Shown: one piece after another, positions 10,299-36,737 of the stretch
Numbering within the stretch: the stretch's first letter is position 1
Layout: the number at the start of each line of letters is the position of its first letter
DNA from: Lentisphaeria bacterium
Lineage (GTDB): Bacteria; Verrucomicrobiota; Lentisphaeria; Victivallales; UBA1829
NCBI GenBank assembly: GCA_017455665.1
Contig: JAFSZN010000115.1
Span: 1 to 62,294, forward strand
Length of the DNA stretch: 62,294 nt
Direction of reading: 5' to 3'
Translations under genes and position numbers: made by a program
Notes under the pieces: model-generated
The model's input: only the letters and a program-made list of their open reading frames with translations
What the model was told of the DNA's origin: nothing
The model's database searches: none

Positions 10299-10303
10299 AT
10301 CAA

Positions 10304-10995: not shown

Positions 10996-11010
10996 GAAAG
11001 GCCGCCGCAC

Positions 11011-11265: not shown

Positions 11266-11272
11266 CCAAACC

Positions 11273-13050: not shown

Positions 13051-13071
13051 CCAAAACAGAAAGGAAACGCT

Positions 13072-13257: not shown

Positions 13258-13282
13258 CCAACCAAAAACAAGGAAAAATGCC

Positions 13283-15473: not shown

Positions 15474-15475
15474 CC

Positions 15476-15589
15476 ATGACAAGAGGCGAACAGAAAGAAA
15501 GATTCTCGTGCCTCGTCGTCCTCGTCAGCGCGGTCTTGCTGGCCGCGCTGGCTATCGTGCTTTGCGGGGTAATCCTATGGCGGGGATGA
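15476..15589 (+). CDS. possible 37-aa membrane peptide
   Basis: MTRGEQKERFSCLVVLVSAVLLAALAIVLCGVILWRG. Overlaps the next start. Positional support only. Confidence 0.3.
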   Translation: MTRGEQKERFSCLVVLVSAVLLAALAIVLCGVILWRG

Positions 15590-19969: not shown

Positions 19970-20086
19970 TGTTTTGCCTGTGCGTAAGTTCGCCCAACTT
20001 ATTCCAGCGAGGTACTAAAGTTTTAGCGGGCCACCTCAATCCACCTGTATCGACGGTGCAGGGTGACGAACTCCAATCTGTCTTGT

Positions 20087-20210
20087 GTAGCCAGCCGGGC
20101 CCCGATGTTCGCGTTCGAGTTCGACAACGCGTTGTTGACGTTCGCGTAGCCCACGCCATCGTTAGCCCCGTTGTTAGCGTTCCCACCGAAGTAAACGACA
20201 CGCGCACCGG
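20087..20210 (-). repeat. DGR template repeat (TR)
   Basis: 124 nt, matching VR at 109/124 positions. All 15 mismatches are A on the coding (minus) strand of TR. Conceptual translation is Asn(AAY)-rich: GGNANNGANDGVGYANVNNALSNSNANIGARLA. Confidence 0.92.
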
Positions 20211-20233
20211 AACCGGCTGAAGTTCGCTCCCCG

Positions 20234-20264
20234 CCCTGCATCCCGCTTAGAGCGGAATGCAGGG
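20234..20264. other. strong hairpin between the target-gene stop and TR
   Basis: CCCTGCATCCCGC - TTAG - AGCGGAATGCAGGG, a ~13-bp stem with one mismatch. No T-run follows on the coding strand. Confidence 0.6.
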
Positions 20265-20316
20265 ATTTCGTGTTTCGCTTTTCGTTTCTCGCCCCTTTCG
20301 CCCCTTTCGCCCCACG

Positions 20317-21885
20317 TTATTCGTTTTCGCCGGACGCAGCCAGCCGGGCCCCGATGCCCGCGTGCGAGAGCGACAACGCGTAGTTGACGCCCGCGTAGCC
20401 CACGCCATCGGCAGCCCCGGTGCCAGCGTGCCCACCGAAGTAAACGACACGCGCACCGGCGTTAGCATCATTGTACACATAATCACCGAAATAAGTGTCC
20501 GCTCCGCCGCCAATCGTAATGGCAAAGAAGCTGTCCGTGTCGAACGTCTTGATGTAGCCCGCCGCTTTCGGCCAAGCGTGGTTGACCCACGCGTAGGAGT
20601 TACCCGTGTAGCCACGGGACGGGAACTTTTCGCCCTGCTGCCATGCGCCCATGTCGCTGTCGCAGTTGGAATAGATGCTGATGTCGTTGGTTGTCCAGTA
20701 GCCCGACTGCGAATAATCGTCCGCGGTCGCGTTCTGGTACTTCTGGCATCCGTCCGCAAATTCCCACTGTGCCGCCCACGGATTTTCAAGGCCGCGCCAG
20801 TTGAACGCCACGACGCGGCTTCCGCTGTTGTTCCAAATACTTCCGCCGTCCTTCATGGTGAGAAGGTCGAGGTCAAGCCCCGTTTCTTCCGTCTCGTCTG
20901 CGGTGACTTCGCCGTTTTGAAGCCCGAATGTTGCCGCGCGTCCGGTCTTGCGGAGCGAAGCGTAATCCCATGCGGAGCAGTTCGCGAAGCCGAAGGAAAT
21001 GGCCGCCTGACTGTTGAGATTGCCGCCGTCAATGGCGACCATGAGCGTCAGCCATTCGCGGAAAAGCATGTTCGTCAGGTTGCCGTGATTGTTCCCCGCC
21101 GCCGTGCGGAACGTTGCGCGGGTCATGGATCCTGCCGGGCGGTAGCCCATAATGGAGCGGAGACGGTCGCCGGAAGCAAACGAAACCGGGGTGCTTTCCG
21201 CGCTCTGCGTCTTCGGGGTTCCGGTCGAATCCGTCAGGACGCCTTTGAACATGCCGACGTACTGAACTTGCGCCGTCGCGCCGCCGCTTCCCGTGAAGAA
21301 CCACGGATGCGGAGCGGAATCAACGAACTGTTCGTTCGAAACGAGCCAGACGACAGGATTGTGGCCGCTTCCGTCCGTGTAGGTGTCCTTGCGCCAATAG
21401 GTGATCGGGATTCTCAACATGAAGTCCACGAGCGTCGTGCCGCCGCCGCTTTCCGTCCAGATTCCTTTCTTCTCGTTCTCGGTCAGCGCGGTGCCGTCCG
21501 CCTTGTGTGTGCTGTCGGAGACATCGAGGAAGCATTTATTCACGCCGTTTTCAAGGTCGCGGAGAACGCCTTGAAACGCATGCGCCGGGGTCTGCGCGAA
21601 ACTGTCGACTGCGTGATACCGCAGCGCGGTTGATGCTCCGGCGAAGTCGTAGGCGTGGTTCAACACGACTTTCGTGCCAGCCGTCGCCGTTGTTGCAAGG
21701 TCGAAGTCCAGCCCGTACACATACGCGCTTTCCTGCGATCTGTTGTGAAGCGGAACGCCGCCCTGTGTCGCGCCGTCGCCATAGTAAAGGGCTTTTTCGT
21801 CCTTATCGTAAAGGACCTCACCCGCCAGCGGGATTCCCGCCTTGCGGTCTTCGGATGTTGCTTTGGGTACTCCCCACTTTGCCAT
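20317..21885 (-). CDS. DGR target: Mtd-like receptor-binding tail fibre protein with C-terminal variable region
   Basis: The N-terminus AGEVLYDKDEKALYYGDGATQGGVPL resembles the Mtd_N/fibre motif. The C-terminus ARVVYFGGHAGTGAADGVGYAGVNYALSLSHAGIGARLA is the VR, a C-type-lectin-fold style VR ending 17 nt before the stop. Confidence 0.88.
   Translation of the reverse strand: MAKWGVPKATSEDRKAGIPLAGEVLYDKDEKALYYGDGATQGGVPLHNRSQESAYVYGLDFDLATTATAGTKVVLNHAYDFAGASTALRYHAVDSFAQTPAHAFQGVLRDLENGVNKCFLDVSDSTHKADGTALTENEKKGIWTESGGGTTLVDFMLRIPITYWRKDTYTDGSGHNPVVWLVSNEQFVDSAPHPWFFTGSGGATAQVQYVGMFKGVLTDSTGTPKTQSAESTPVSFASGDRLRSIMGYRPAGSMTRATFRTAAGNNHGNLTNMLFREWLTLMVAIDGGNLNSQAAISFGFANCSAWDYASLRKTGRAATFGLQNGEVTADETEETGLDLDLLTMKDGGSIWNNSGSRVVAFNWRGLENPWAAQWEFADGCQKYQNATADDYSQSGYWTTNDISIYSNCDSDMGAWQQGEKFPSRGYTGNSYAWVNHAWPKAAGYIKTFDTDSFFAITIGGGADTYFGDYVYNDANAGARVVYFGGHAGTGAADGVGYAGVNYALSLSHAGIGARLAASGENE
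20336..20459 (-). repeat. DGR variable repeat (VR)
   Basis: Offset +249 nt from TR. It differs from TR only opposite TR plus-strand T positions 20088, 20108, 20109, 20115, 20120, 20121, 20133, 20141, 20142, 20162, 20163, 20171, 20174, 20175 and 20181. Confidence 0.92.
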
Positions 21886-22446: not shown

Positions 22447-23658
22447 TTAATCGAGGTCGTCGTAGGGGAAAGGCGGCGCGGTCAGACTTACGCTGTGGTC
22501 GAATTTTACAAGGACCTCGCCCACCCAATCCCCGGATAGCGAATACACCTTGAAATCTGCCCCCATTGGAACCGGAAGGATTTGAGTTGCACCACGGAGA
22601 CAGCCAGAGCCACCGCCGCCCGCGGATTGCACATCAAACAAAGCGATTTCAACCCCGCCGATGGAACACCTTAAACAATCCAGTCCGTTCGCGGATGCGT
22701 TTTTGAGAGAGACGCGCAAATAGCCGTTATCCATTGCATAATACTTTGAACCGGAGCCAAGATTTGTTGTGGATGTAATCGTTGAAGTATTATTGCCCGC
22801 GCTGAAAATATAGTTATAGGCCGCGCCTGTTAGGCTTCCGTAATTCGGAAACTGCATCCCACCACCGCCGCCCGCGGATGCGACAGCGGAATCAATGACC
22901 TGTTGTTTCGTTGCGCCCTCCAACTTTGACGCGGATGTTGCACTGTTCACCGTGGAACTGCTTGCGGACGCGAGAAGTTGCGCTTTCGTTGCACCGCCTA
23001 CACGCGTCGCGCTCGTTGCGTACGTTGCGCTGTTCACCGTGGAACTGCTTGCGGACGCGAGAATCTGCGCTTTGGTTGCGCCGCCGAGATACTGCGCGCT
23101 CGTTGCAAAGGTCGCGCTTCGCACGACAAAATTGCTGTCGAGTGCTTCGGCATAGCCAGCCGATTCTACCCAAGTAATCGCGCCGCCACCGCCGCCACCG
23201 CCGCCCATGCCGGAAATGATGTCGCGGATGGAATCCAATGGCGTCAGCGTCCCGGACTGGCCGTAGGGGATTTTATAGCACAGTTTCACGGTTTCGTGAA
23301 GTTGCTGGATGGCTGCCGTGTTCTGGTCAAGTTGCGTTTCCAGCGATTCGCTCGGAATCTTTCCGAAGTTCGGCAGGGCTACGCGCTGCGCCGGGACCAC
23401 GGAACGGATGATGGTGAGTTTCCCGTTCGCGGGCTGTTCGGTCAGCAGGGTAATCCGCGCGCCGTTCTCGTAGTCCGTTGTGCCGGGTTTCAGGCCGACA
23501 GAAAAATCCGTCCCGCTGTTCAGCTGGTATTCCGTACTGGTGTCCGGGTCAAAGACGTAACAGGACACATCGGCGGGGTCGAAGATTTTTACGCCGAAAT
23601 CAAACACGGTATCCGTGCCGATTACGAACTGCTCTTTTACGATTGGGGATTCTAACAT
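22447..23658 (-). CDS. tail fibre protein with 29-aa Ser/Ala/Thr repeats
   Basis: 403 aa. Contains a GGGGGG linker and the repeats ATKAQILASASSSTVNSATYATSATRVGG / ATKAQLLASASSSTVNSATSASKLEG (87-nt DNA period, about 22925-23100). GGAG RBS upstream. Confidence 0.7.
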   Translation of the reverse strand: MLESPIVKEQFVIGTDTVFDFGVKIFDPADVSCYVFDPDTSTEYQLNSGTDFSVGLKPGTTDYENGARITLLTEQPANGKLTIIRSVVPAQRVALPNFGKIPSESLETQLDQNTAAIQQLHETVKLCYKIPYGQSGTLTPLDSIRDIISGMGGGGGGGGAITWVESAGYAEALDSNFVVRSATFATSAQYLGGATKAQILASASSSTVNSATYATSATRVGGATKAQLLASASSSTVNSATSASKLEGATKQQVIDSAVASAGGGGGMQFPNYGSLTGAAYNYIFSAGNNTSTITSTTNLGSGSKYYAMDNGYLRVSLKNASANGLDCLRCSIGGVEIALFDVQSAGGGGSGCLRGATQILPVPMGADFKVYSLSGDWVGEVLVKFDHSVSLTAPPFPYDDLD

Positions 23659-23703: not shown

Positions 23704-26700
23704 TCATTTATTTCCGCCGTTTTCCTCGTCTCTGTTGAAGAGTTTCCAGATGCGTTTCCCCTGCGTCGCAAGGGCGGAAACCGCCGTCCCGATAGGTCCG
23801 GCCGGCGCGTACCATGCGCCGATTGCCATGCCGATGTCTCCGGCTGCCTTGATGCCGTCCATAGCCTCGTCCGCCGTGATTTCATCGTCTCCGGCCAGTT
23901 CGATAAGGTTGGAAACATCCCGCTCGATATCCTCGGCCAGCGGCACGGCGTTGAACGTGGACTTCACGCTGGACTTGCCGCGGATGATTTTGTCGGCGGC
24001 GATATTGACCAGTTTGTTTGCCAGCTGGAAATACAGGACGCCGCTTTCAAACGGGCCGAACAGCCACGCGATAAAGTAGTCCTCGATTTCCGCATCATCG
24101 AACACGTCAAGCCCGTACCGGAGCATATCCGTGACGAACTGCATCATGGTCGGGACTACGATGTGGTTCACGAGCAGCTGCCGCGCCAGTTTCTTCTTGG
24201 CCGCCGCCTTGTCCTCTCCGTATTTGAGTTCCCGGAGCGTCCGAAGTTCGAGGTTCATAAGCTGGATGGGATTCGCGCGGAACGCCGTGAGATACCGGAT
24301 TAAGCCCTGATTCTGCTGGAAATAGTTCAGGTCTTTCAGATACCCGCTTTGCTGTGTCTCGTCCGTTGCCCGCATCCATGCCCGGCGCGCTGCGCGCTCT
24401 GCCTCGGTTTCATTAAGGCCGCGCTGCTTCGCCTGTTCCTTCGCGTACTGGTAGACGGCATATCCGCCGTGAAGCGCGCTCCACACGTCCGCCGCTTTGG
24501 TTCCCCATGTGGAAGCCGCCAGAATCGCGTCCATCATCGGGCTGTACTGCTTGCTGTCTTTGGCGTCGCTCAACATGTAAATCAGATCGCGGTCGAGGCC
24601 GCCAGCTTTGCGGTTCTTGATGTAGTCGGAATCTTTCGCCCAGCGCACGAACTCGCGGAAATCCTTGTTCGTAAAATTCGCTTTAGAAAGGTTTTTCACG
24701 AACGGGATAATCGGCACATCGTTTGTGTAGGACAGGACGCCGAGGCCCTGCTTGATGATGCTGGAAAGGTTGACCGCGATTTTCGCCGGGACCCAATAGC
24801 GGTACAGTTCGTTGAAGATGTACTTGTTGTACCACTCGGACGAAATCATCTGTCCGCCGCGCGCCAGCGTCCCGATTTGCTCCACGATTTCCCGCGTCAC
24901 GTCCTTCCCGAAGTTGTCGTTGATTGCTTTCTGGACGCGCTGGTTGCCGTACACTTCCCGGAGTTGCCGGATGGTGTCGGACCACGCGAGGAAATGTGCC
25001 TGACCGATTTGGTTGTTGAAGAACGTCGTGAACGCATCCGCATCCATATCCAGCGGTTTCAGGTGGAATCTGCGCGCAATAAGGAAACTCGGATTTATGG
25101 TCATCATGCCCGCGCCGCGCGGCCCGCTGGTCGGTTCGTTGGCCATGCTTCCACGGAACACGCCCGGCCAGTAGTTCGGATTCTTCGGCAGATGCGCGCC
25201 GTATCGGTTGTAGACTTCCGCATCCAGAGCGTCGCGGTTCTTCGCGATATAGTCGCGCATCCATTCTCCCAACTTCTTCGTCTCCGGTTTCAGGAACTTT
25301 TTAATCTGCTCAATGCTTTCTTCCGTCCAGCCGTTCCAGAGCATGTTCGGGCGGAAATCTTCCTGTTCCCACGTCAGTAGGATTTGAAGCGCGGAGCCTT
25401 GTGAAAGCGGGACTTCCACCTTCGCCGCGCTCTCGTTCGCTGCGTGGCTTAGGAGCATGATTTTGTACGTCCCTTCTTCCTCTTGCAGTTTGTTATAGGC
25501 TTCCTGATCGCCTTTATCCGTGAAGACTTCATAAGTGCGCTTGATTCCGGCGTCATAGTCTTCCAGCTGCTTCCGCAGGAAGAAAACACCTGTTTCGTCC
25601 AACAGCAGTTCGCGCGTCCCGCCGAGTTTGGTGGGAATAAGCGCGGGTTCGCCGTTCTCGATTGCCCGCAGGATGCTACGCGCGCCCGGCATCTTCTGGC
25701 CCATGTATTCGTAATCATCCACAGGGACCATTTCGCGGACGACCTTGCGCCGCTGTCCTTCCGTAACGGCGGCCTCGTCCACCTTGACAATGCGGGAATA
25801 CTCCGTTTTGAAAACTCCGGTCTTCTTCGTAACGGTCTTCATTTCGCGGAGCAGTTTTCCCTTCTTCCGCATCTTGGCCAGAACGTTTCCGGTCACCCCG
25901 GCGTAGTCTTCCAGCGCGGCGTCAAAGTCGTTTTGAAGCCGTCTTGTGCTGGTCTGTTCCGTCTGGGTGCTGTCCTCGATTCGGTTCCAGAGTTTTCCCG
26001 CATAACTGTCGTCAAAGTCCTGTATGGATTTCCCGGACGCGATCCGCATCAAGTTCGAAAGCGAGGATGTTTTCAGCATGTAGGTCAGATGATTCTTCGC
26101 GTCCGAGTTGTCGGGAACATAGTTTTTCCCGAAAGTCGCGTCATCAATCGCCTGTCTGCGAAGTTTCTCCGCCTCGGCAAACCGCGCGCCCAACTGTGTT
26201 TTTAGGTCGATTTTGCCTTTCTTGATAAGGTTTTTCAGCATGTTTTCTGCTGTCTTCACCTGTTCGACCGGGAGATAAGGCAGATTCCCGAACATTTCCA
26301 GAAGCGCGTTGTCCTCGGTGTGCTGCTTGATTTCCGCCTCGATATCCGCGCGGTCCTCGTCAGCGGAAAGGCTGTCAAGTTGCATTTCCAGCGCGGCGAT
26401 TCGCTCGTTGTTGTAGTCCACGGCGTTCGCAACCGTCGCAGGATTCATGTCGACGATTTTGCGGATACGGTCAACGTGCGCCTGTTCGCTCGGAATGATG
26501 CTCACCGGAATACCCTTCCAGTTCCGTTTCATCTTCGCGGCGTCCAGCATTTCCCGGATGTTCTCGATGCTCGTTTCCGCGCGCTTCTTCTTGCTCGCCG
26601 TCAGGATGTCGTCCATGAGTTTGTGATACATGGCCAGACGCTTCCCTTCGGGGTATTTCTTGGTCGGGCTGGTCCCGTATTCCAGCAGCCGCACGATGCC

Positions 26701-29700
26701 GCGCGTGAATTCTCCGCGCAGTTCTTCGGGAAGATGCTCTTCCGCGAACTTGATGGCGTCGCGCTGTAACTGCGCCGTCTTCGCGTTTCCCTTCAAGAAC
26801 TCGTCGCGGAGTTCGCCCAGACGCTTCGAAAACTCTTTCCACGAGGCCGCGCGGGCGTCCTTGTACGCCGCCGCATATCCTTCTTCGCGGCCCTTCTCGT
26901 TTTGAAGCGCGGCGTTAATCGTTTCAAGGTTCAGTTCAGACGGCTTTTTGCTCTTCGGCGGTTCCTCTTCCATGAACTGCCTGTAAAGTTCATTGAACAC
27001 ATCCGGGTTTGCCTCGGCGTACTCCGGCGTAATCGGTTCCCCGCGAGAAATCAAATCCACTACGGTGTCCTCGACTTCCGCCTGTCTGGTCGCTTCTCGC
27101 TCCGCTTTCCATTCCTCTTCCGCCTGTTTGTCACGGAATTTTTCCTCTTCAACGTGTTTTTTGTACGCGGCATAGAGGTCGGGCTTTTTCAGGTAACGGA
27201 ACGTCTCAATCAGGGCTTCTTCGATATCCAGCGGGTCGCCGCCGTATTTATTGGCGATTTCCTGCGCCAGTTCGTCCGATGCTTTCCCGTCCGCGTGAGA
27301 CAGGGCAATATCACGATTCCGCAGATATTGACTGTACCGAAGTTCGCTTTCGCGGTTCCCGCGCGGCCTCTTCTTCCCCTTTTCGCGCCATTCTTTCGCG
27401 ATAAACGTGCCGGGCCATTCGTCCGCATCGTCAAAGCGCATACTCGGACGGATAACGATGTCAAGGCCGCCGTATCCCGTGAACTCCTGCGCCTTGTTAA
27501 TCATATCGTAGTTTTCAAGAATCCACTGGTCGCGCGCCCGTTCTTTTGCCTTTTTCTTCTGCGCGGCGATTTTTTGCTTCTCTTCCTTGATTTCCATTCC
27601 GGCCATTTGGTACAGGCTCCAAGCATCGTTCTCGTCATCAATTTGGATTCCGAGCGTGCCGAGATAGAATTTGACCTGGGACGGCTCCACAAAATCCGCG
27701 CCCTCGTACTTCGGTTTCAGGATGGCGACAATATCCCGCTTATCCTCGTCGCTCATGCTGTCGAGGCTGAAACGGAGTTTCTTTTCCTGCGTCACGAATT
27801 GAAGCGTCGCCTTTCGCGCCGCATCGTTCGCGTAGGTGAACACGTCTACGCCAGCCTCTTCCAGCGCGTTCAGGATATCTTTCGCCGTACCTTCCGGCAC
27901 GACTGCCGCCTTGAACTCGTTGAGATAAACGGCCCGCTGCGGTTTCGCCTCGAAAAGCGGCGTCGGCAAGTCGCGGAGTTTCAGCAGGAATTCAGCCATG
28001 TCCTTGTAGATCGGGTTGCTGAAATTACCCAATGCCTCGGTAAGCCATTCCCGGTTCTCCCCCTTGTTCGGACCTTCCGCCATGGCGCGGAGTAAATCGG
28101 CTGCCGTATCGTACGACGGGGAAATGTGGTCTCCGGTGATGTTCGCGTTGATGTGGTCCAGCAACTCGTTGAATTCCTGCGTGACATCCTCTTTGATTTT
28201 CTTGTAGTCTTCGCCGGAAACGATTTTGTCGCGGTTCTTTTGGATTTCCGAAATACTCTTGAACTGGCGGGCCATGTTCGCGCGGATGTTGCCGACGCCA
28301 TAGAAAAATCCCTCGCTGTCCTTTACTTTTCGCGTCATAAGCCTGACGATGGTTTCGAGGTTCGCGGGCAGATAACGCCGTCTTCCGGAATTTGTGAAGC
28401 CGTCAAAAATACGTTCGTCCGGGTGCAAATCCAGTTCCGGTTCTGCCACACGAATCCACCAGTCGGCGAAATTCTCGTCACCGTCGCGGGTGTCGACGTA
28501 CCAGTTCCGCACCGCGTCCGCGTCCTTTAGATCGTCCACGAAGTCGTGGCTCGTCATACCGCTGCGGTGCTTCTTGACGATGTACTGGATAGAATCGTGT
28601 GAGTCGGGCTCGTTCAGCTCGTGCGGCGCGATAACTTCCAGAGCGCGATCGAAATCCTGCTCCGTGTAGTTCCGCTGGATTTCAGGCCGGCGCACAGAGT
28701 AGATGTCCGCGTTGAAAACCTTGTTCTTCGGATGCTTCGGGTCAATCAGATCCCGGTCGCCCACGAGCGTGATGCGCCCGTAGTCCGTGAAATCGCTCTT
28801 CTCCGCGTCAATGATTCCCAGAGACGGCACGGGAAGCGCGCCGAGTTTGATGGCGTCCCGAAGTTTCTGTTCGCTCACGTTGTGAACGGCAATCAGATTT
28901 TCGTCTTCTCCGGCCAAGCTGAAACGGATATGCTCGTCTACGCGGATATCCTTGTCAGAAAACGCCACATAGTTCCGAGAACCGGAAGCGGTTCCAATAT
29001 AAGTTACCCCATCAATTCCAGCGCGATATAAAAATTCACTCGCGGATTTCGGTGAACCAAGCAACTCTGAAAGCATATCGTAATTATAATCAAAATCACG
29101 ATAATGGAACATATCATCCGGCAAGGTGATATTTTCTTTTTTCGCCTGTTCCTTGATTTGGAATCGTTGTGTAGCATTGAATCCTTCTTCCCAATAGATA
29201 AGATTTTGATTCCGATTAGGCCAGAAAGTCTGTTTATAAAGATTCTTTTTGTTCTCGATGACGGGATTATATGTCAAATTTCCTTTCTCTACCAAATCAA
29301 AAACGTCAAGAGCGGCAGCGCGATAATTTTCAAGGTCTTGCCCCGTATAGAATCCAACAACACGTTCGGCTGCTTTTTTAATATCAGGTTTACCGGAAGA
29401 TGAATACAGATTGTATGCATCTTGTCTTAAAACGCTTAAAATAATATGCAGGATACGGCTATCATATTCATTTTTATGCGGAGCGGAATCGTAAAATTCC
29501 GTCAGATTATCTAAAGGTTTTCCATTATAGTAAATGTATCCGGTTCCAAATTTTCTATTATAGTCTGCTTCTGCGTAATCACGCCCGACATCCTCGCTGG
29601 AAGAACCGTACAACCCCCACCCGTAGACTTGATTTCCTTCACCCGTCCCGACATAGTTCAGGCTCGGCTGGTCATAGTCCGCCGCGCTTCCGGTATAGAT

Positions 29701-32700
29701 AGGGGAAACGCTGAACCGCGTCTTGATGACGTCGCCTTTTTCCAGCCCGAACGATTCCAGATCAATCGCGCCGCCCTTCCGCTTATACGGTTTCCGTCCT
29801 GCTTTTTTCAGGATTTCTTCCACGTCGGCATCGTCAAGGATGCGCGTCACCCTCATGGCCCCGGTAATCATCCATGCTTCCGTCTTCGGGTCTGGGTTCG
29901 TCCGGTAGCGATAGAATCCGTCTTTCGGGACGCGCGGCAGTCCGGCTTTCGCGTGTTCGAAATTCCCGTTCTTGTTATATCCGTAGCTCATGGCCTCTTG
30001 CTGATAGTCCACGTCTGCGGCAATCTCGCACTCCGCCCACACGAAATTATCCGGGAAAAGGTCCTTTTCTCCTGTTTCCGGGTTTTTCGTCATAAACTGG
30101 TTCGCAACCGGGACTTCTCCAAGATGCCAGCCGGGACGATAGGCAAGTGTCTGTTTTCCAACGTTCGTTCCCTTGCCCCCGGCCTGTACCCGTTTCCGCC
30201 CCGTTTTGCTGTCTGCCGCGCGCGGTGCGGCGTCCGCGTTGAGCCAGATGCCGACCGGGGTAGATTCGCCGCCCGGATTTGCCACCATCGGCGGGAACAG
30301 TTCGCCCGGCTTACTCTTTTTTACTGCGAAAACCTTATAGCCCTTCAAGGTCTTCTTCGGCGGGTCTTCCTCGCGGATGCTGAAACGCACGTCCTCACCC
30401 GTTTCCGCCACGCTGAAACGAACAATCTGGTCTTCTCTCGGAACGTCCTCTGTCTCGCTCGGCGCGTGTTTGCGGTTGAATTCGGGATCGCTCCGCATTT
30501 TCAGATTCCGCATTTCCACGTTCCGCGCCTCGACTTCTCCCGCGCTTCTGCGATAACGGCTGAAATCGCTGGAAAGATATTTCATGCGCGCGTCAAGGGT
30601 GTGCAAATCCGTTGCCAACCACAGGAACGCGCTGAAATTATGAAATCTGTTGTCGGCGTTTTCGGGGACGGTTTTCTTGAAAAGGTCTGCCGCGTGTTGA
30701 TAGAAGTCGCGGTTCCCCTTGAAAACATCACGTTGAAGCCAGTCGTCAATCGTCCACAAGAGGCCGTACCCGCTGGGAATCTGGTCGGTCAGGGCCTTAA
30801 ATTCGTCATGCTTCCGGTTATATTCCGTCTTGGCTTGAAGAAATGCCGGGTCATCGTAATCGGTCATGGAACGGACGGAAACAAGATTCTGGCCGCCGGA
30901 GAATCCTTCCATGTGCTGAATTGCGTGCTGAACTTCATGAACAAGCACATTGTTGATACTTTCCTCGAAGTCTGCAAGCAAGTCCTTGATATTCGCCTCG
31001 ATGCGCGCGGCCTCTTCCGGCGTTTTCGCGTCGCGTTTGTCCGCTTCCATATCGTTCAGCGCGTCAAAGTCGTGGTCGGTCAGAAGCGTCTTGTTGATGG
31101 CGATAATCTTGTTTTTCTTGTCGTGATACCCCGCTTCCCCGCGAGGAAGCGGGACTACGGCGATACGGTATTGTTTCAGGTCGGGATATGCGCTGAAAAG
31201 TTCCGGTGCGCTGAAATATCCGTCCACAGGGCCGTCATAGTCGATCAGGGCGTTATAGTTCCCGCCCGCGGTCAGTTCGTCCGTTTTCAGGCGCACGTCC
31301 GGCGCTTCCATGCGCCAGTAGGTATCTTTCCCGCGTTCCCATCCGGTCGCCGCCCAGATTGTTTTCCGGTCGAATCCGGCCTTTTCCATTTCTTTCGCGC
31401 GGTTCAGATTGTCAAGATTCATCTGCGCTCTTGTCGCGCCGTCTTCCCCGATTAAGGCAAACCGGATATGTTCGTCTACGCGGATATCCTTGTCGGAAAA
31501 CGCGACATAGTTCTGTTCGCGGGACGAATCCCCGATGTACGTTATACCGTCAATCCCGGCACGATACAGGAATTCACTCGCTGCTTTGGGCGAATTGAAT
31601 ACGTCCGCAAGCTGTTTGTAGACATATTTCCCTTGTGCCTCGTAGAAATCAAGATATTTTTCCAGATAATCGCGCATCACGTCCGGCGCATAATAGAATT
31701 CTTTTTCGAATTCTTCCCCGTCAATCGCCGCGTCAACGCCGCGCTCTGCGTTTACATAATCAATCAGGCGGGGATTGTCATGCTCTTTCGCAAGGGCGTC
31801 AAGAATCTGGTTTGCCTGTTCTTCGGGAATAGTCTCATCCCAATCCAGCAGATTTTCTTCCTTGTCCGGCCAGAACGTTTGTTTATACAGGTTGTGCGGC
31901 TTCGTTTCCTCGATATCGGTAATCTCGATTTTCGACAGCACGTTTTCTGCTGCGGCAAATGTCTGTTCGCGGTCAACCTTTTCACCGAGGAATTTGGAAA
32001 AATTCAGATTGTCTTCCGTCTGTTGATACAGTTCGTTTTCAAGGTCGGCGCGGCTGATTCTGTTTCTGCGTCCGTAGATAATGTTCCAAGCCATTCGGAG
32101 AATGGAACGTTCTTCTTCGGAAAGATTCGGGAAGGATTTTTCGTCAATATCGGTCTTGTTTGAGATTGGAACGCCGTCAAAGACGAACTTGCGGAGCGTC
32201 CCGATTCCTTTTCTGTCAACATCGGTTTCCGCATACCACTCCGCAACCCCGCGCGAGGTGCTTCCGTACAGCCCCCAGCCGTACACTTGCGCGCCCTCTC
32301 CGGTGCCGACATAGTTCAGGCTTGGCTGGCCGTAATCCGCCGCGCTTCCCGTCCAAACCGGGGAAATGCTGAAACGTGCCGCGCCGGGATTCTTGCGCTG
32401 TGCGCGCATGGCGCGCGCGGATCGCATCAGCGCGTGTTCGATATCGGCGTCAGAGAAATGGATGTTCGGAAAGACCTTCCGCAGGAAGTCGCGTATTGTA
32501 GAAAGAAATTCTTTCCACCAACTCGGTTTGACATTCGATTCTGCAATCCTCGCCAGATATTCGTCCGCAAGATAACGCTGTCCTTCCACGGTTTCGTCTG
32601 TCGTGTTGTAAAGATCGGAAAGGCCGATTTTCGCAATTTCCTCGTGATGCGTTTTATACACGTCGTCAAGAAAACTGTCAAACTTCTCACCGAAAACGCG

Positions 32701-34512
32701 CCGAAGCCCAGCATGTCCTATGACTTCATGTAGAATCCGTTTTTCCACATCACTTGGCGGGGTTGTTTTCCCAACAACAAAGACATCACCGTCACACCAT
32801 GTGGCGCGAATATACGCGGGGTCAACGCCTCGAATCTGTGCGTCAAGTTTTGCCTCGTCCGGCAAATCATCAAATTTCTCAACGGCACGAATCTGAATCC
32901 CCGGAAACTGTTTTGCTACTTCGTTTACGCGGTCAATAGTGTCCTGAATATTCCATTTGACTTCATGCCGGTACAGATAACTGTTCAATCCCTCTTTTGC
33001 GTTTTGTTCCCGTTTGGCCGCCGCGCGTTTCTCGCGCTCTTCGTCCGTTAGTTCGGCGTCTTCTTCCTCTTCTTCGATTGCTCTGGCATCGTCCATAATG
33101 CCGAGTTCAATGGCGGCCTGTCTTGCTTGCATAGGGTCGCCGGAATCCTCGATTGTATGCAGTAAGCCAAGTTCCTTTTCCTCGTCTTCGGTCAGTTCGC
33201 CTTTTTCGGTCAGTTCGTGGATGCGGGTGCTGACTTTTTCCCGCGCCGCCTCGGTCGCCTCTGCGACTTCCCGAAGATTGTTATAGGAATCATAGGCCAG
33301 CGGTCCGCCAGTTACCGCGCCGAGAAACGCCGCTTCCGGGACGCCCTTGAAGATTGCCTTGATATAATCGGACTCTGTGAAATTGGTCGTGTCCGTCACG
33401 CCCATAGCAATATCGAGGATGTTTTCCGCGATCTCTTCAAGGGTTTCTTCTCCGCCCTCTTTCGCCGCCGCGAATCCGTAATGTTTCAGGAATCCGGCCA
33501 GCCCCTTCTTGATTCCTTCTTTCGCGACCTTTTCCGAAACTTTCCCTTCGACAATGCCGAGCGTAATCTTTTCGAGGACGCCGTTAATCAGGCCGATGCC
33601 GAAGCCATAAATTAACGCTTTCCCTTCGTCCATGCCGTATTCGTCCCGCGCGTCATAATACCCGCCGATGCCGTAAACCGCGCCGATTCCCGTGGCGCCG
33701 ACGCCTGTGGCCGCAAGACCGACTTGCGCGGCCAGCTGCGGGGTGTAATTCACAACGGCGATTCCGGCATTTGCCAGCCAGTCCCCGAACGAATCCGAAT
33801 TGGTCATCCAGTCTTCCGGCAAATCCATGTTCTGTGCCGCCCATTCCCGGATAGGTTCGTAATGCTCTTTGTAGACGCCTCGGATTTTATTTTCGACATC
33901 CTTCCCGGCCTTTTCGCCGGACGGAATCATTTCGGCGGCCTGCGGAAGCCCCTGCGCCATAAGTTCGGCGCGCGCGTTCTCGTTTGCGCCCCATACAAAG
34001 AGTTTTGCCAGAAACGCCGCCGTGTTGAACGTCGCCTTGGCAACTTCCCCTTCGCCCTCGACGACTGCCGCCACGGCGCGGTTCTCCCAAAAACCTTTCT
34101 CCGCTTTCGGCTGGTAAATCTGCGCGATACTGTTGTAAGCCTGTTCCACGGACATCGGTTTCCCCTCGAACTTCTCAATGGCCGCTTCAAGGTTGTCAAA
34201 AACGAAATCCGCCGCTTCCGGGTGGTTCATGCTGTAATAGCGGGACAGCGCGATACGCTTTTTCTTCTCTTCCGCGCCAGCTGGGTCGGACTGTAAAATT
34301 GCCTCGATAGCCGCGCGGTTCTCTGCCGGAACACATGCAAGCGGGTCTTCCACGAAACTGTCACGGATTGCCGCGCGCTCCCGCAGTGTCGGGCCGTTCT
34401 GCTGTTTCCGCTGCTCCGCGAAATATTCCCACGGCTTGACGTCTTCGCTGTTATCCTGCGCCGGCGCAGTTCCGCCGCCGAACATTTCCCACGGTTTGAT
34501 GTTGTTATCCAT
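23704..34512 (-). CDS. giant (3602 aa) internal-virion/polyvalent-type protein with two HExxH zincin motifs
   Basis: Single uninterrupted 10.8-kb ORF at the T7 gp16 position. HEVIGH lies at 32713-32730 and HEVQHAIQH at 30925-30939. Has a Gly-rich hydrophobic N-terminal segment and duplicated modules (SP[VI][WY]TGSAADY.QPSLNYVGTGEG...SPK.ASEFLYRAGIDG.TYIG...YVAFSDKDIRVDEHIRF). Confidence 0.85.
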   Translation of the reverse strand: MDNNIKPWEMFGGGTAPAQDNSEDVKPWEYFAEQRKQQNGPTLRERAAIRDSFVEDPLACVPAENRAAIEAILQSDPAGAEEKKKRIALSRYYSMNHPEAADFVFDNLEAAIEKFEGKPMSVEQAYNSIAQIYQPKAEKGFWENRAVAAVVEGEGEVAKATFNTAAFLAKLFVWGANENARAELMAQGLPQAAEMIPSGEKAGKDVENKIRGVYKEHYEPIREWAAQNMDLPEDWMTNSDSFGDWLANAGIAVVNYTPQLAAQVGLAATGVGATGIGAVYGIGGYYDARDEYGMDEGKALIYGFGIGLINGVLEKITLGIVEGKVSEKVAKEGIKKGLAGFLKHYGFAAAKEGGEETLEEIAENILDIAMGVTDTTNFTESDYIKAIFKGVPEAAFLGAVTGGPLAYDSYNNLREVAEATEAAREKVSTRIHELTEKGELTEDEEKELGLLHTIEDSGDPMQARQAAIELGIMDDARAIEEEEEDAELTDEEREKRAAAKREQNAKEGLNSYLYRHEVKWNIQDTIDRVNEVAKQFPGIQIRAVEKFDDLPDEAKLDAQIRGVDPAYIRATWCDGDVFVVGKTTPPSDVEKRILHEVIGHAGLRRVFGEKFDSFLDDVYKTHHEEIAKIGLSDLYNTTDETVEGQRYLADEYLARIAESNVKPSWWKEFLSTIRDFLRKVFPNIHFSDADIEHALMRSARAMRAQRKNPGAARFSISPVWTGSAADYGQPSLNYVGTGEGAQVYGWGLYGSTSRGVAEWYAETDVDRKGIGTLRKFVFDGVPISNKTDIDEKSFPNLSEEERSILRMAWNIIYGRRNRISRADLENELYQQTEDNLNFSKFLGEKVDREQTFAAAENVLSKIEITDIEETKPHNLYKQTFWPDKEENLLDWDETIPEEQANQILDALAKEHDNPRLIDYVNAERGVDAAIDGEEFEKEFYYAPDVMRDYLEKYLDFYEAQGKYVYKQLADVFNSPKAASEFLYRAGIDGITYIGDSSREQNYVAFSDKDIRVDEHIRFALIGEDGATRAQMNLDNLNRAKEMEKAGFDRKTIWAATGWERGKDTYWRMEAPDVRLKTDELTAGGNYNALIDYDGPVDGYFSAPELFSAYPDLKQYRIAVVPLPRGEAGYHDKKNKIIAINKTLLTDHDFDALNDMEADKRDAKTPEEAARIEANIKDLLADFEESINNVLVHEVQHAIQHMEGFSGGQNLVSVRSMTDYDDPAFLQAKTEYNRKHDEFKALTDQIPSGYGLLWTIDDWLQRDVFKGNRDFYQHAADLFKKTVPENADNRFHNFSAFLWLATDLHTLDARMKYLSSDFSRYRRSAGEVEARNVEMRNLKMRSDPEFNRKHAPSETEDVPREDQIVRFSVAETGEDVRFSIREEDPPKKTLKGYKVFAVKKSKPGELFPPMVANPGGESTPVGIWLNADAAPRAADSKTGRKRVQAGGKGTNVGKQTLAYRPGWHLGEVPVANQFMTKNPETGEKDLFPDNFVWAECEIAADVDYQQEAMSYGYNKNGNFEHAKAGLPRVPKDGFYRYRTNPDPKTEAWMITGAMRVTRILDDADVEEILKKAGRKPYKRKGGAIDLESFGLEKGDVIKTRFSVSPIYTGSAADYDQPSLNYVGTGEGNQVYGWGLYGSSSEDVGRDYAEADYNRKFGTGYIYYNGKPLDNLTEFYDSAPHKNEYDSRILHIILSVLRQDAYNLYSSSGKPDIKKAAERVVGFYTGQDLENYRAAALDVFDLVEKGNLTYNPVIENKKNLYKQTFWPNRNQNLIYWEEGFNATQRFQIKEQAKKENITLPDDMFHYRDFDYNYDMLSELLGSPKSASEFLYRAGIDGVTYIGTASGSRNYVAFSDKDIRVDEHIRFSLAGEDENLIAVHNVSEQKLRDAIKLGALPVPSLGIIDAEKSDFTDYGRITLVGDRDLIDPKHPKNKVFNADIYSVRRPEIQRNYTEQDFDRALEVIAPHELNEPDSHDSIQYIVKKHRSGMTSHDFVDDLKDADAVRNWYVDTRDGDENFADWWIRVAEPELDLHPDERIFDGFTNSGRRRYLPANLETIVRLMTRKVKDSEGFFYGVGNIRANMARQFKSISEIQKNRDKIVSGEDYKKIKEDVTQEFNELLDHINANITGDHISPSYDTAADLLRAMAEGPNKGENREWLTEALGNFSNPIYKDMAEFLLKLRDLPTPLFEAKPQRAVYLNEFKAAVVPEGTAKDILNALEEAGVDVFTYANDAARKATLQFVTQEKKLRFSLDSMSDEDKRDIVAILKPKYEGADFVEPSQVKFYLGTLGIQIDDENDAWSLYQMAGMEIKEEKQKIAAQKKKAKERARDQWILENYDMINKAQEFTGYGGLDIVIRPSMRFDDADEWPGTFIAKEWREKGKKRPRGNRESELRYSQYLRNRDIALSHADGKASDELAQEIANKYGGDPLDIEEALIETFRYLKKPDLYAAYKKHVEEEKFRDKQAEEEWKAEREATRQAEVEDTVVDLISRGEPITPEYAEANPDVFNELYRQFMEEEPPKSKKPSELNLETINAALQNEKGREEGYAAAYKDARAASWKEFSKRLGELRDEFLKGNAKTAQLQRDAIKFAEEHLPEELRGEFTRGIVRLLEYGTSPTKKYPEGKRLAMYHKLMDDILTASKKKRAETSIENIREMLDAAKMKRNWKGIPVSIIPSEQAHVDRIRKIVDMNPATVANAVDYNNERIAALEMQLDSLSADEDRADIEAEIKQHTEDNALLEMFGNLPYLPVEQVKTAENMLKNLIKKGKIDLKTQLGARFAEAEKLRRQAIDDATFGKNYVPDNSDAKNHLTYMLKTSSLSNLMRIASGKSIQDFDDSYAGKLWNRIEDSTQTEQTSTRRLQNDFDAALEDYAGVTGNVLAKMRKKGKLLREMKTVTKKTGVFKTEYSRIVKVDEAAVTEGQRRKVVREMVPVDDYEYMGQKMPGARSILRAIENGEPALIPTKLGGTRELLLDETGVFFLRKQLEDYDAGIKRTYEVFTDKGDQEAYNKLQEEEGTYKIMLLSHAANESAAKVEVPLSQGSALQILLTWEQEDFRPNMLWNGWTEESIEQIKKFLKPETKKLGEWMRDYIAKNRDALDAEVYNRYGAHLPKNPNYWPGVFRGSMANEPTSGPRGAGMMTINPSFLIARRFHLKPLDMDADAFTTFFNNQIGQAHFLAWSDTIRQLREVYGNQRVQKAINDNFGKDVTREIVEQIGTLARGGQMISSEWYNKYIFNELYRYWVPAKIAVNLSSIIKQGLGVLSYTNDVPIIPFVKNLSKANFTNKDFREFVRWAKDSDYIKNRKAGGLDRDLIYMLSDAKDSKQYSPMMDAILAASTWGTKAADVWSALHGGYAVYQYAKEQAKQRGLNETEAERAARRAWMRATDETQQSGYLKDLNYFQQNQGLIRYLTAFRANPIQLMNLELRTLRELKYGEDKAAAKKKLARQLLVNHIVVPTMMQFVTDMLRYGLDVFDDAEIEDYFIAWLFGPFESGVLYFQLANKLVNIAADKIIRGKSSVKSTFNAVPLAEDIERDVSNLIELAGDDEITADEAMDGIKAAGDIGMAIGAWYAPAGPIGTAVSALATQGKRIWKLFNRDEENGGNK

Positions 34513-36146
34513 TATTTTTTACTCCAACTTCTTTCATCGGCGGGGTCGCCGCCCTTGAAAATGTAGCCGCCGAACGTGTCGCCCGGCTGCGGTCTGAATC
34601 CGGTCTGCGCCTTGTCGCGGATGTAGCGCGGCGTCATGATGAACTTGATTTCGCCGTCATTCAGCTGACCAACGCGCTTCTTTACTTCCTCGATGACTTC
34701 GGTTCCGGTTTTCCCTTTGCGGAGCATTTCCCGCGCCATTTCGTGGATTTCGTAATACCGGGCTTGCATAAACTTCTGGTCTTTGACTTTGTTGAAAAGG
34801 CCGGACGGGTCATAAGAAAGCCCCTTGATTTGAACGCCGTCCCGATAGGACTTTTCGATATACTGCTGAACCAGTTTCCCGTCCGGGGTCGTGAACTCGC
34901 TCTTGCCGGATAGTCCGTCCTGCATCTGCGAATCAAGATGTTTCATCAGCTCGTTCAAATCAGAGGAATCATTGACGGATTTCAGGATTTCGCTCCAAAT
35001 CTGCTCACGCTGCGCCCATGCCGCGTTCGGGTCGCTGGAAAACCATGTGTTGGAGATTTTATAATTCCAGTGGTCTTTCTCGATAGTTTCCTGTTCACGC
35101 TGCAAACGCTTCGCTTCGTTGGCCGCCTGTTTCGCCTCGTTCTTCTCCGCTTTCGCCTCGGCTTTTGCGGCCTTTTCCGCGCTGGCGATTGCCGAGTTGT
35201 AGGACTTCACCCACCCCATATAGCGGTTAAATTGTTCCTCGGTGATGATATCGGCGTCCTTCGCGGCGATAAGACTGTCTTCGGTCGGGACGCGGCCTTG
35301 ATTGATTTCCGCCAGAACATGGGCGTCCCGCTCCGTTTCCTTCTGCGTCTTGGCGGTCTTTGCCACGCGAATAAGCTGGTCGCGGTAGTCTTCCGTGATG
35401 TTCTTGAAGTTCACGAAATTGCCGTCCGAATCGCGCTCTTTCAGGCGTTCCAGAATCGATTTGGCTTGAACCGGAGATTCGGAATCAGCCGCCGCGTCAA
35501 CCAGCCGTTTCGCCGCCGCGCTGTCGGCCAGTTTGCCGTATTCCACGTTGCGGATGTTGTATTCCTCTTCCGAAATCAGCGTTCCCTTGTGTTCGTCCAG
35601 AATCCGCTTATATTCCGCCTCGTCTCCGCGCTGTGCCGCGTCTTTCAGGAGCGTTTGCATCATGTTGTAGTCAGCCGTGACTTTCGCCTGAATCCCGATT
35701 TTTCTCCGCTGGCTTAAACTGTCGATGCGGATACCTTCCATTTCCGCGTTGAACTGGTTGCGGAAAGGCGTCGTCATCTGTTCCGTGTACTGCCGCACCT
35801 CGTCAAGATACCGCTGGTCGGCCTCGTCCGCCCATTTGGAATATTCCTTGAAATCGGCTGGATTCGAGGCCATTCTGTTTTCCAGTTCCTCGTTGATGGC
35901 GCGGTACAGATTACGCGCGTTTGTCGCGGCCAGCTTGTTTTGTGTGTCAGCCTCGCGCTCCACGAATTCCCGCCCGGCTGCATATAACTCCAGCGCACCG
36001 CGTCCGAGATCTTCGAGGCCGTTTCCGGCATCCCGCAAGGCGCGGGACGTATCCATACCGAAGTCCATGCCCGGCGCGCCGCGCATACGGACACCGTTTT
36101 CAACATGCGGGACATACCCGCGTTCGCTCATCGGAATTCTCGGCAT
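34512..36146 (-). CDS. internal virion (ejection) protein, gp15-position, coiled-coil rich
   Basis: 544 aa, Lys/Glu/Ala-rich helical. Its stop overlaps the giant gene's ATG (TAATG). The call is positional. Confidence 0.55.
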   Translation of the reverse strand: MPRIPMSERGYVPHVENGVRMRGAPGMDFGMDTSRALRDAGNGLEDLGRGALELYAAGREFVEREADTQNKLAATNARNLYRAINEELENRMASNPADFKEYSKWADEADQRYLDEVRQYTEQMTTPFRNQFNAEMEGIRIDSLSQRRKIGIQAKVTADYNMMQTLLKDAAQRGDEAEYKRILDEHKGTLISEEEYNIRNVEYGKLADSAAAKRLVDAAADSESPVQAKSILERLKERDSDGNFVNFKNITEDYRDQLIRVAKTAKTQKETERDAHVLAEINQGRVPTEDSLIAAKDADIITEEQFNRYMGWVKSYNSAIASAEKAAKAEAKAEKNEAKQAANEAKRLQREQETIEKDHWNYKISNTWFSSDPNAAWAQREQIWSEILKSVNDSSDLNELMKHLDSQMQDGLSGKSEFTTPDGKLVQQYIEKSYRDGVQIKGLSYDPSGLFNKVKDQKFMQARYYEIHEMAREMLRKGKTGTEVIEEVKKRVGQLNDGEIKFIMTPRYIRDKAQTGFRPQPGDTFGGYIFKGGDPADERSWSKK

Positions 36147-36149
36147 AGC

Positions 36150-36737
36150 TCACCCCCAGATGCTTCTTCCCCAAAGTCCATTGGATTTCAGTTCGGCGCG
36201 CTGCGTCACATAGTTCCCGGCGATTCCGGCCACTTTCCCGGTCGTTCCGGCTGCCTGTCCGACCAGAGACAGGGCAAGGGAAGAACCGGACGGCTTTTGT
36301 GCGCGCGCGACGCCAGCCTGATACTGGTACATTTTCGCCTGTTCCCTGTGGTTCTGAACAGCCTGATACCCGCCAACATGCGCGTCCTGTACTTTCAGTT
36401 CCTCGTTCATGGCCGTTGCGCCGAGGATCGCCAGCGGGCTTCCGCTGGTCATGGCTGCGCCGGATTTGCCGAGTAAAGCCCGCTGCTGGGCTTTCAGGTA
36501 TTCGCTTTGCTCGCGCTGCCGCCGCGCGTTTTCATCGTTTTCCCGTTCCAGACGGCTCGCTTCGCGCTCTTCGAGGCGTTTATTGTATTCGGCCTGTTCC
36601 GCTTGCATTTCCGCATTGGCGCGCGCCTGATTGTGCTGCTGGATGCCAGCGACGCCGCCGACCACACCGCCGACGATTGCCGTGGTTGCGGCCACCGCCG
36701 TCGCGATTGTCAAAGCTGTACCAAGTGAGATAGCCAT
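36150..36737 (-). CDS. internal virion protein, gp14-position (N-terminal TM plus coiled coil)
   Basis: MAISLGTALTIATAVAATTAIVGGVVGGVAG TM segment followed by a charged coiled coil. The call is positional. Confidence 0.55.
   Translation of the reverse strand: MAISLGTALTIATAVAATTAIVGGVVGGVAGIQQHNQARANAEMQAEQAEYNKRLEEREASRLERENDENARRQREQSEYLKAQQRALLGKSGAAMTSGSPLAILGATAMNEELKVQDAHVGGYQAVQNHREQAKMYQYQAGVARAQKPSGSSLALSLVGQAAGTTGKVAGIAGNYVTQRAELKSNGLWGRSIWG

Follow-up and report, generated by a model that had tools for sequence, protein, structure and literature searches.

Introduction

What does a protein of 3602 residues do at a position where T7-type phages encode an internal core protein? The question is raised by a prophage on contig JAFSZN010000115.1 (62,294 nt; assembly GCA_017455665.1) of a Lentisphaeria bacterium; this whole stretch is referred to here as the window. 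One giant open reading frame (ORF) of the prophage lies in the slot of T7 gene 16. An initial annotation, made from the sequence alone, took its product for a carrier of effectors that resembles the polyvalent proteins of phages and is ejected with the DNA. Polyvalent proteins were defined in 2017 by Iyer, Burroughs, Anand, de Souza and Aravind, who predicted their delivery with DNA (PMC5512222). Our analysis favors, with a probability of roughly 60%, a genuine phage-type polyvalent protein that replaces T7 gp16 and carries, between conserved ends, five cargo cassettes bounded by RF[SA] motifs. For this protein, we infer packaging, ejection, membrane insertion, processing and targets.

Results

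A single gene under purifying selection

The initial annotation described one uninterrupted 10,809-nt ORF and named sequencing errors, with several genes hidden in one, as a possible refutation. Translation from the ATG start gave 3602 aa (408.6 kDa, isoelectric point 5.1) with one terminal stop only, and the window contains 0 ambiguous bases. An independent IMG/VR contig (L009) carries an uninterrupted 3599-aa orthologue that is 91% identical to the giant protein. Five further loci (L004, L005, L006, L010 and L011), of which two are viral contigs and three are metagenome-assembled genomes (MAGs) of Lentisphaeria/Victivallaceae, have single uninterrupted ORFs of 2385–3099 aa in the same slot. 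A single-sequence scan of genome contigs for relatives gave no match, whereas a profile scan led to five Lentisphaeria/Victivallaceae MAG loci. In a codon-level comparison with L009, the ratio of nonsynonymous to synonymous substitution rates (dN/dS) was 0.04–0.29 across all ten segments of the gene, and 0.05–0.21 in the cargo modules, indicating that the entire reading frame is under purifying selection. The L009 copy, the five other orthologues and these ratios exclude the sequencing-error alternative and show that the giant ORF is genuine and a single gene. In the sequence TAATG, its start codon and the stop codon of the upstream 544-aa ORF overlap, and GGAG lies 11–14 nt upstream of the ATG, which indicates translational coupling of the two.

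The giant ORF in the gp16 slot of a T7-like structural module

A 32-bp exact direct repeat (8479–8510 and 48550–48581) represents the 3′ end of a tRNA-Ser(GCT) gene (48556–48647, minus strand). We therefore assign the two copies as attachment (att) sites, which delimit a prophage of 40.1 kb. The giant ORF occupies 27% of this element, in agreement with the earlier estimate. The G+C content is approximately 0.60–0.67 in the flanks and 0.45–0.59 inside the prophage. On the minus strand, genes for TerS, TerL, a T7-type portal (PF12236, 7e-107), a scaffold/protease-like protein, a major capsid protein (PF19821), and tubular tail proteins A and B are followed by a 146-aa ORF in the gp13 slot, the gp14-like gene, the 544-aa ORF, the giant ORF, and a gene with a tail-fiber N-terminus. 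This order matches T7 genes 11–17 one for one, and the block from tubular tail protein B to the fiber is conserved in seven related loci (L001, L004–L006 and L009–L011). The giant ORF thus occupies the gp16 slot, as had been claimed. The accompanying claim that it follows gp14-like and gp15-like genes stood for the gp14-like protein, which matches phrog_418. The 544-aa ORF matched no family, and similarity to T7 gp15 was looked for and not detected, so this gene is gp15-like by position only.

No T7-like RNA or DNA polymerase was identified in the sample of non-structural ORFs scanned. The structural genes and the retroelement leave little space for other genes, and the T7 likeness of the prophage therefore appears to be confined to its structural module. 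We regard the phage as a temperate podovirus of Lentisphaerota with Victivallaceae-like hosts, in which the giant protein would replace the third internal core (ejection) protein.

Amino acid composition points in the same direction as gene order. Only 3 of the 3602 residues are Cys (0.08%), and Cys is absent from the gp14-like and gp15-slot proteins; the average of 13 other prophage proteins is 1.17%. The corresponding counts are 0/747 in T7 gp15, 0/1318 in T7 gp16, 0/3500 in N4 gp50, and 2/2807 in phi24B gp47, all of which are ejected or have been detected in virions. By this shared depletion, the giant protein groups with proteins that exit the capsid via the tail.

Conserved ends enclose a variable cargo region

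All relatives share the regions corresponding to aa ~1–716 and aa ~2240–3600, and the intervening stretch varies in content and length. We divide the protein into three parts: an N-module (aa 1–712), a variable cargo region (aa 713–2246), and a C-module (aa 2247–3602). L010 is without aa 716–1372 and gains ART-PolyVal, the middle of L005 contains ART-PolyVal, and those of L001 and L004 contain LPD3; LPD23, PBECR3 and a metallopeptidase are also found in the middles of relatives. Among 18 carrier-type cluster representatives, the middles hold PBECR5 (5), ART-PolyVal (5), LPD3 (5), MuF_C (4), methyltransferase (2), LPD13, and PBECR1 domains. Some have no cargo: in L002 and L003, aa 716 is joined straight to aa 2231, and in representative P0036, the C-module begins at 782, shortly after the end of the metallopeptidase domain at 763. 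The full N- plus C-module architecture is present in approximately 35–45 of the best 150 C-module matches. Comparison of these sequences indicates that the giant protein is a pair of conserved carrier ends with swappable cargo between them.

The motif RF[SA][ILVA] occurs seven times in the giant protein (aa 713, 1017, 1365, 1376, 1599, 1863 and 2247), compared with 0.37 expected occurrences; none of 2000 shuffled sequences had more than 3. Each of the seven copies is located at a module boundary, and the first and last exactly bound the cargo region. In the carrier-type representatives, the motif directly follows the HEXXXH domain that ends the N-module and recurs no more than a few residues from where the C-module begins.

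The comparison with L009 resolves the modules further. Most of the giant protein is at least 95% identical in the two phages, with two exceptions: the HEXXXH region (aa ~500–700; 49–68% identity, synonymous divergence (dS) 1.1) and the PBECR5 region (aa ~1900–2200; 65–74% identity, dS 0.76), the latter with flanks that are at least 94% identical. Outside these two diverged modules, dS is 0.03–0.4, and the second copy of a duplicated module has the lowest value (0.03). The range of dS from 0.03 to 1.1 across segments suggests module-wise replacement by recombination, and it looks as though the HEXXXH and PBECR5 modules were recently replaced in this way between near-identical phages.

We also considered a tape-measure-like or repetitive structural protein without enzymes, which the initial annotation had named as an outcome that would count against its proposal, and rejected it. 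A single duplicated module, with copies approximately 580 aa apart, is the only repetition, and enzymatic-type domains are present.

Two cargo-less copies come from Logan assemblies (L002, positions 5731–13759, and L003; SRR21376882/3). In both, the giant gene has a gp15-slot partner, and the pair is flanked by genes for regulators, DnaB, an integrase, and ParA. A prophage in decay, a phage-plasmid with another gene order, or an amber mutant could each explain this arrangement.

Cargo modules

Pfam was searched with 500-aa segments of the giant protein, with gathering cut-offs of 25 bits for PF18814 and 27 bits for PF18838. PBECR5 (PF18814) matched aa 1869–2007 (1e-23, 84.6 bits) and LPD23 (PF18838) matched aa 1027–1074 (4e-13 to 1e-11, 44.8–49.3 bits), both above the cut-off; polyvalent proteins are the source from which the two families were defined. 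PBECR domains are predicted to be metal-independent RNases aimed at host or defense RNAs (PMC5512222). Matches to the PBECR5 module were found by tblastn in Acinetobacter phage Ab9 and Bacteroides phage BF1-TP2. The LPD23 cassette also contains a zincin-like domain with VLVHEVQHAIQHMEGF at aa 1189–1204 (window 30901–30948), in which HEVQH at aa 1192 is a canonical HEXXH. Nine homologues all retain HEVQH, EGF and AGEVEARN. The weak Pfam matches of this zincin were SprT-like (0.048), M91 (0.075) and, in a homologue, DUF6782 (5e-4), and the LPD23 plus HEXXH pair is also present in giants of F116-like Pseudomonas phages.

A third cassette matches phrog_30118 (aa 1387–1590, 1e-39) and is 67% identical in L010 and 28% in L005. 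The remaining two are copies of a module of approximately 300 aa (aa 712–1033 versus aa 1598–1879, 42% identical), the first of which also occurs in L010, L011 and 19 representatives. Whether this module is a degenerate ART-PolyVal domain was tested with hhalign, and the local match was weak (E 0.003, probability 9%); should the resemblance be genuine, Thr takes the place of the catalytic His. The duplicated module, the phrog_30118 module and LPD23 have no predicted activity.

The proposal of polyvalent-type modules in the initial annotation is borne out by the PBECR5 and LPD23 matches and by the ART-PolyVal, LPD3, MuF_C, LPD13, and PBECR1 domains of relatives. Its suggested search for LPD, ART, nuclease, and transglycosylase domains succeeded in part: LPD23 and PBECR5 were found, but the Pfam search gave no ART, no nuclease besides PBECR5, and no transglycosylase. 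PHROGs also match several unannotated families with profiles of 1.3–3.5 kb. Sequence searches of the PDB gave no match for the whole protein, the HEXXXH domain, the phrog_30118 module, PBECR5 plus extension, or LPD23 plus zincin, and an NCBIfam scan of the giant protein gave no usable match.

N-module and HEXXXH domain

The first part of the N-module had no Pfam, PHROG or NCBIfam match, and a word-based search with the N-module gave two partial matches only. The Gly-rich hydrophobic stretch mentioned in the initial annotation was recovered as GLAATGVGATGIGAVYGIGGYY at aa 265–286 and GFGIGLING at aa 303–311, which belong to a candidate hairpin with Kyte–Doolittle peaks of 1.3–1.45. Its hydrophobic, Gly-rich character is retained in relatives.

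The second part of the N-module is a zincin-like domain of approximately 180 aa with ILHEVIGHAG at aa 593–602 (window 32707–32736), the motif H595-E596-x-x-G599-H600, and an invariant downstream Glu in an xxEEFLA motif. Two zincin motifs had been reported initially. Both strings are present and both are invariant, although their coordinates had been given a few bases short at each end, and the first is not a canonical HEXXH but a HEXXXH. A HEXXXH clade or variant of polyvalent-protein metallopeptidases has been described (PMC5512222). By tblastn, the domain matched the "DarB-like" giant of Bacteroides phage BKO1-TP3, an Achromobacter phage, and MetMV. Its hidden Markov model (HMM) matched the BKO1-TP3 giant (1e-22) and aa 1532–1654 of phi24B gp47 (6e-13), a stretch of gp47 without a Pfam model. 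The region corresponds to phrog_873 (labelled "endolysin") and phrog_14770, and the domain had no Pfam match and no PDB sequence match.

C-module and Cc domain

A word-indexed search with the C-module gave only eight close homologues. A HMMER search of 1.84 billion cluster representatives gave 2271 clusters at E ≤ 1e-3, of which 322 were at E ≤ 1e-30. The part shared among them, designated Cc, is located near the C-terminus of proteins of 1800–5200 aa, and it lies at or near the C-terminus in 157/157 collected matching sequences (the window's own cluster included). Thirteen distant Cc-bearing giants contain ART-PolyVal (7/13) as well as InPase, SNF2 helicase, LPD1/3/5/14/37, MuF_C, RadC, radical SAM, and GNAT domains, indicating that they are polyvalent proteins. 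One of them (L015) adjoins a P22-type portal gene. An isolated phage, Nostoc phage Nsp-JY18, has Cc in a 4012-aa protein annotated as "lysin".

The AlphaFold2 (AF2) model of Cc is all-alpha, with a mean predicted local distance difference test score (pLDDT) of 74.7 and a predicted template modeling score (pTM) of 0.61. In BFVD, 63 entries match it at E ≤ 1e-3, and the best of them include TMq values of 0.6–0.72. Nearly all BFVD matches listed are pieces of giant proteins (mostly suffixed _2/_3) from uncultured phages, and several are named ART-PolyVal, LPD or MuF-C. Foldseek found no PDB neighbor of Cc, the best being insignificant matches to helical membrane proteins (E at least 0.13, TM at most 0.15), and no Pfam model matched it. 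The AF2 model of aa 2403–3602 is poor (pLDDT 54), and its Foldseek search of the PDB, limited by the quality of this model, was empty. The models support the long C-terminal helical part proposed in the initial annotation, with a helical C-module and an all-alpha Cc. A MuF-like domain suspected in the C-module from its RATDETQQSG motif was rejected, with no match to Pfam Phage_Mu_F.

Neighboring features

A complete diversity-generating retroelement (18932–21885) lies just downstream of the tail genes. All mismatches between its template repeat (TR) and variable repeat (VR) fall at adenines of the template copy (14/14), and a reverse transcriptase is also present in L009 and L010. Inside the prophage, near the retroelement, is a second, shorter integrase/recombinase-like ORF of 264 aa (15382–16176, plus strand; phrog_216, 1.5e-16). 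The tail-fiber gene contains two tandem 87-nt copies (22931–23104, 85% identity) that encode a 29-aa repeat. Tad2-like (PF11195) genes are located near the giant polyvalent gene in L001 (17640–17960) and L015 (24746–25336). Coordinates of the features are listed in Table 1.

Table 1. Features of the giant gene and its surroundings in the window
Feature	Position	Strand	Remarks
Giant ORF	23704..34512	-	3602 aa; purifying selection per module; orthologues L004-L006, L009-L011
N-module part 1 (aa 1-528), conserved carrier head	32929..34512	-	L001, L002, L004-L006, L010, L011; ~33 representative clusters
Gly-rich hydrophobic hairpin (aa 260-284, 299-322)	33547..33735	-	Candidate membrane-inserting segment
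HEXXXH zincin-like domain (aa 529-712)	32377..32928	-	H595, E596, G599, H600 invariant
Cargo 1 (aa 713-1016), duplicated-module copy 1	31465..32376	-	SPxWTGSAADY...GTGEGxQVYGWGLY...GIDGITYIG...NYVAFSDKDIRV
Cargo 2 (aa 1017-1375), LPD23 + HEXXH zincin	30388..31464	-	PF18838; L[IV]HE[IV]QHxIQxxEGF...AGEVEARN
Cargo 3 (aa 1376-1598), phrog_30118 module	29719..30387	-	Invariant RPGWH, W.E.E.AAD.DY
Cargo 4 (aa 1599-1862), duplicated-module copy 2	28927..29718	-	dS vs L009 0.03
Cargo 5 (aa 1863-2246), PBECR5 predicted RNase + extension	27775..28926	-	PF18814; phrog_22978
C-module proximal part (aa 2247-3012)	25477..27774	-	Helical; small beta domain near aa 2901-3033; carrier subfamily only
Cc domain (aa 3013-3500, ~490 aa)	24013..25476	-	All-alpha; shared among giant phage polyvalent proteins
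C-terminal tail (aa 3501-3602)	23704..24012	-	Gly/Ala-rich hydrophobic end
gp14-like internal virion protein (195 aa, no Cys)	36150..36737	-	phrog_418, 7e-14; PF24072, 1e-4, below cut-off
gp15-slot ORF (544 aa, no Cys), coupled to giant ORF	34512..36146	-	Assigned by position
Tail-fiber gene, gp17-like N-terminal adaptor, directly downstream of giant ORF	22447..23658	-	phrog_1640, phrog_6518 (N-terminal 125 aa); kept in relatives
Integrase	8558-9712		Inside att-bounded prophage
Retroelement reverse transcriptase	18932-19969	-	phrog_1423, 3.5e-79
Retroelement TR and VR	20089-20210 (TR), 20338-20459 (VR)		122 nt, 89% identity
Retroelement target ORF, 522-aa tail protein	20317-21885	-	phrog_5302; VR at C-terminal end

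Discussion

We propose a delivery pathway for the giant protein based on its gene position, composition and modules. It would be packaged with the gp14-like and gp15-slot proteins on a portal-proximal core and expelled through the tail at infection, largely unfolded. The conserved end modules may help to form or anchor a trans-envelope conduit and to dock the protein in the capsid. The cargo string would reach the cytoplasm ahead of or with the DNA, where the RNase and other modules may act on host or defense targets. The modules may be freed by the protein's own metallopeptidases through cleavage at the RF[SA] junctions; a processing role of metallopeptidases has been proposed for polyvalent proteins generally (PMC5512222). 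Tentatively, this may extend further: the head with its hairpin and HEXXXH domain, the tail with Cc, and the RF[SA] junctions could constitute a general self-processing protein-delivery chassis of podoviruses, in which Cc would dock to the capsid or portal or form the conduit and would be the hallmark of this class of injected giants. If so, the phage would package and inject any cassette flanked by RF[SA] junctions, and the resident peptidase would release it.

Several observations weigh against a polyvalent protein in the role of gp16. Sequence similarity of the giant protein to T7 gp16 was not detected (hhalign probability 0.2% for the C-module profile, E 0.39 for the Cc HMM, other HMMs negative), and Foldseek searches of the PDB with the C-module models, one of them poor, found no fold similarity to gp16, gp15 or solved ejection proteins. 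Unlike T7 gp16, it has no SLT/lysozyme or other peptidoglycan hydrolase domain in Pfam. No internal-virion-protein family was matched among PHROGs, in which the matches are unannotated giant families and the "endolysin" phrog_873. From the gp16 position without gp16 homology, we conclude that the giant protein is a positional, and probably functional, replacement rather than a demonstrable gp16-family member. The search for MPTase-PolyVal suggested in the initial annotation was negative, as neither zincin matched PF18818 (no hit at E ≤ 1 with 500-aa segments). The PBECR5 match, itself a prediction, covers only positions 12–152 of the 239-position model, the hydrophobic segments of the hairpin are only moderately hydrophobic, and the RF[SA] motif might act as a structural linker or mark a joint formed by recombination. 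Moreover, the L001 copy of the gene is split across two frames, the L002/L003 copy has one in-frame TAG where the window codes for Tyr, and the L002/L003 pair of gp15-slot and giant genes has no virion genes in 5.7 kb of upstream sequence. The gene therefore also occurs broken or out of context.

Other explanations of the locus share part of this evidence. The protein may be packaged and ejected but left uncut, in which case the 409-kDa chain would remain tethered at the point of entry, the RF[SA] copies would be linkers or recombination joints, and the zincins would act on host or peptidoglycan-associated targets. Known precedents fit such a course: the virion RNA polymerase (vRNAP) of N4 is packaged unprocessed despite a metallopeptidase domain, ArdC and TraC1 are transferred at full length (PMC5512222), and the authors of the phi24B study suggest that the gp47 peptidase may help to cross the cell wall (bioRxiv 10.64898/2026.04.10.717836). 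The module-wise dS values and the shuffling of cassettes are likewise consistent with junctions that serve recombination. However, the amino acids of the motif (R-F-S/A and then an aliphatic residue) are conserved even when it is flanked by different modules, and the targets of the cargo need not be co-located, as argued in PMC5512222; we consider an uncut chain rather doubtful, though a serious candidate. If instead only the N- and C-modules mattered, the giant protein would be mainly a structural core or scaffold, with inactive passengers or spacers in the middle. In its favor, the cargo-less versions presumably work, and no activity is predicted for three of the five cassettes, with Thr in place of the catalytic His in the duplicated module if its similarity to ART-PolyVal is real. 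This is unlikely given the purifying selection on all cargo modules, the invariance of the catalytic-type HEXXH...E motifs, and the cargo of relatives, which consists mostly of enzymes (ART-PolyVal, PBECR and methyltransferase).

A non-virion role, either as a late cytoplasmic multi-enzyme or as a prophage protein for superinfection exclusion or toxicity that happens to lie amid structural genes, seems very improbable. The L002/L003 pair, placed beside regulators, an integrase and ParA and without tail or capsid genes in the upstream 5.7 kb, would suit this explanation, and hosts can capture polyvalent proteins (PMC5512222). Against it stand the coupling to the gp15-slot gene, the strict synteny between internal-protein and fiber genes in seven loci, and the near absence of Cys, which is shared with the gp14-like and gp15-slot proteins and with proven ejection proteins and not with other prophage proteins. 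We therefore retain an ejected polyvalent protein in the gp16 slot as the preferred explanation.

As in phage-type polyvalent proteins, unrelated domains (a PBECR RNase, LPDs and zincin-like metallopeptidases) are combined in the giant protein, encoded among late or virion genes, and shuffled between orthologues. A single ORF holds at least two unrelated domains (PBECR5, LPD23, the zincins, the phrog_30118 module and the duplicated module), its LPD and PBECR domains score above the Pfam gathering cut-off, and both zincin-like domains have a HEXXH or HEXXXH helix with a downstream Glu. In the sections of PMC5512222 that were searched, we found no description of a fixed two-ended carrier (712-aa head and 1356-aa tail), of a motif such as RF[SA] at every junction, of a polyvalent protein in the T7 gp16 slot, or of a C-terminal Cc domain without a Pfam (LPD) model. 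Compared with T7 gp16, the giant protein has the same gene position (after gp14 and gp15, before the fiber), is likewise the largest protein of the internal slots, and is similarly poor in Cys. Its C-module is about the size of gp16, but the whole protein is 2.7 times longer and has an enzymatic cargo region.

Several other phages have giant proteins with which it can be compared. The 2811-aa gp47 of the Stx phage phi24B (LPD5, LPD1, LPD38 and MuF_C) is a podovirus giant that shares the HEXX(X)H domain and is nearly free of Cys; proteomics detected it in virions, and an ejection role was proposed for it (bioRxiv 10.64898/2026.04.10.717836). However, gp47 has neither the N-module head nor RF[SA][ILVA], and its gene is at the genome end after accessory genes and not in a T7-type array. 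N4 gp50, the Cys-free vRNAP of approximately 3500 aa, is also a multi-domain protein. It is organized as beads on a string, passes a tail channel of approximately 35 Å, and is expelled with two smaller ejection proteins (PMC13434306). The giant protein is comparably large and Cys-poor and is accompanied by two smaller internal proteins, although no RNA polymerase domain was found with Pfam or PHROGs and no significant HMM match to gp50 was obtained. P1 DarB/DdrB and DarB-like giants are capsid-packaged anti-defense proteins, but their methylase and helicase modules are absent here. The DarB-like giant of BKO1-TP3 (5553 aa) shares the HEXXXH domain and adjoins a portal gene. The Cc HMM matched none of phi24B gp47, N4 gp50 and the BKO1-TP3 giant, of which the C-terminal 4179 aa were tested. 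Our literature search found no paper linking internal virion proteins with polyvalent proteins. The category of polyvalent proteins (PMC5512222) and the virion-detected phi24B giant are known; replacement in the gp16 slot, the fixed carrier, the RF[SA] motif and the Cc domain were not found described in the literature sections searched.

Cc represents a large family (>2,000 clusters) without a model in current domain libraries, and near-absent Cys may be a simple compositional marker of ejected phage proteins. The 2017 prediction was that polyvalent proteins are injected as bundles of effectors. The locus described here is a natural experiment on their loading, delivery and separation, in which the same carrier occurs with no cargo, different cargo or module-swapped cargo and has a motif at every junction. 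Three questions can be addressed with it directly: which of the two end modules docks the protein in the capsid, whether the junctions are cleaved by the resident peptidases, and what effects the cassettes have on the host.

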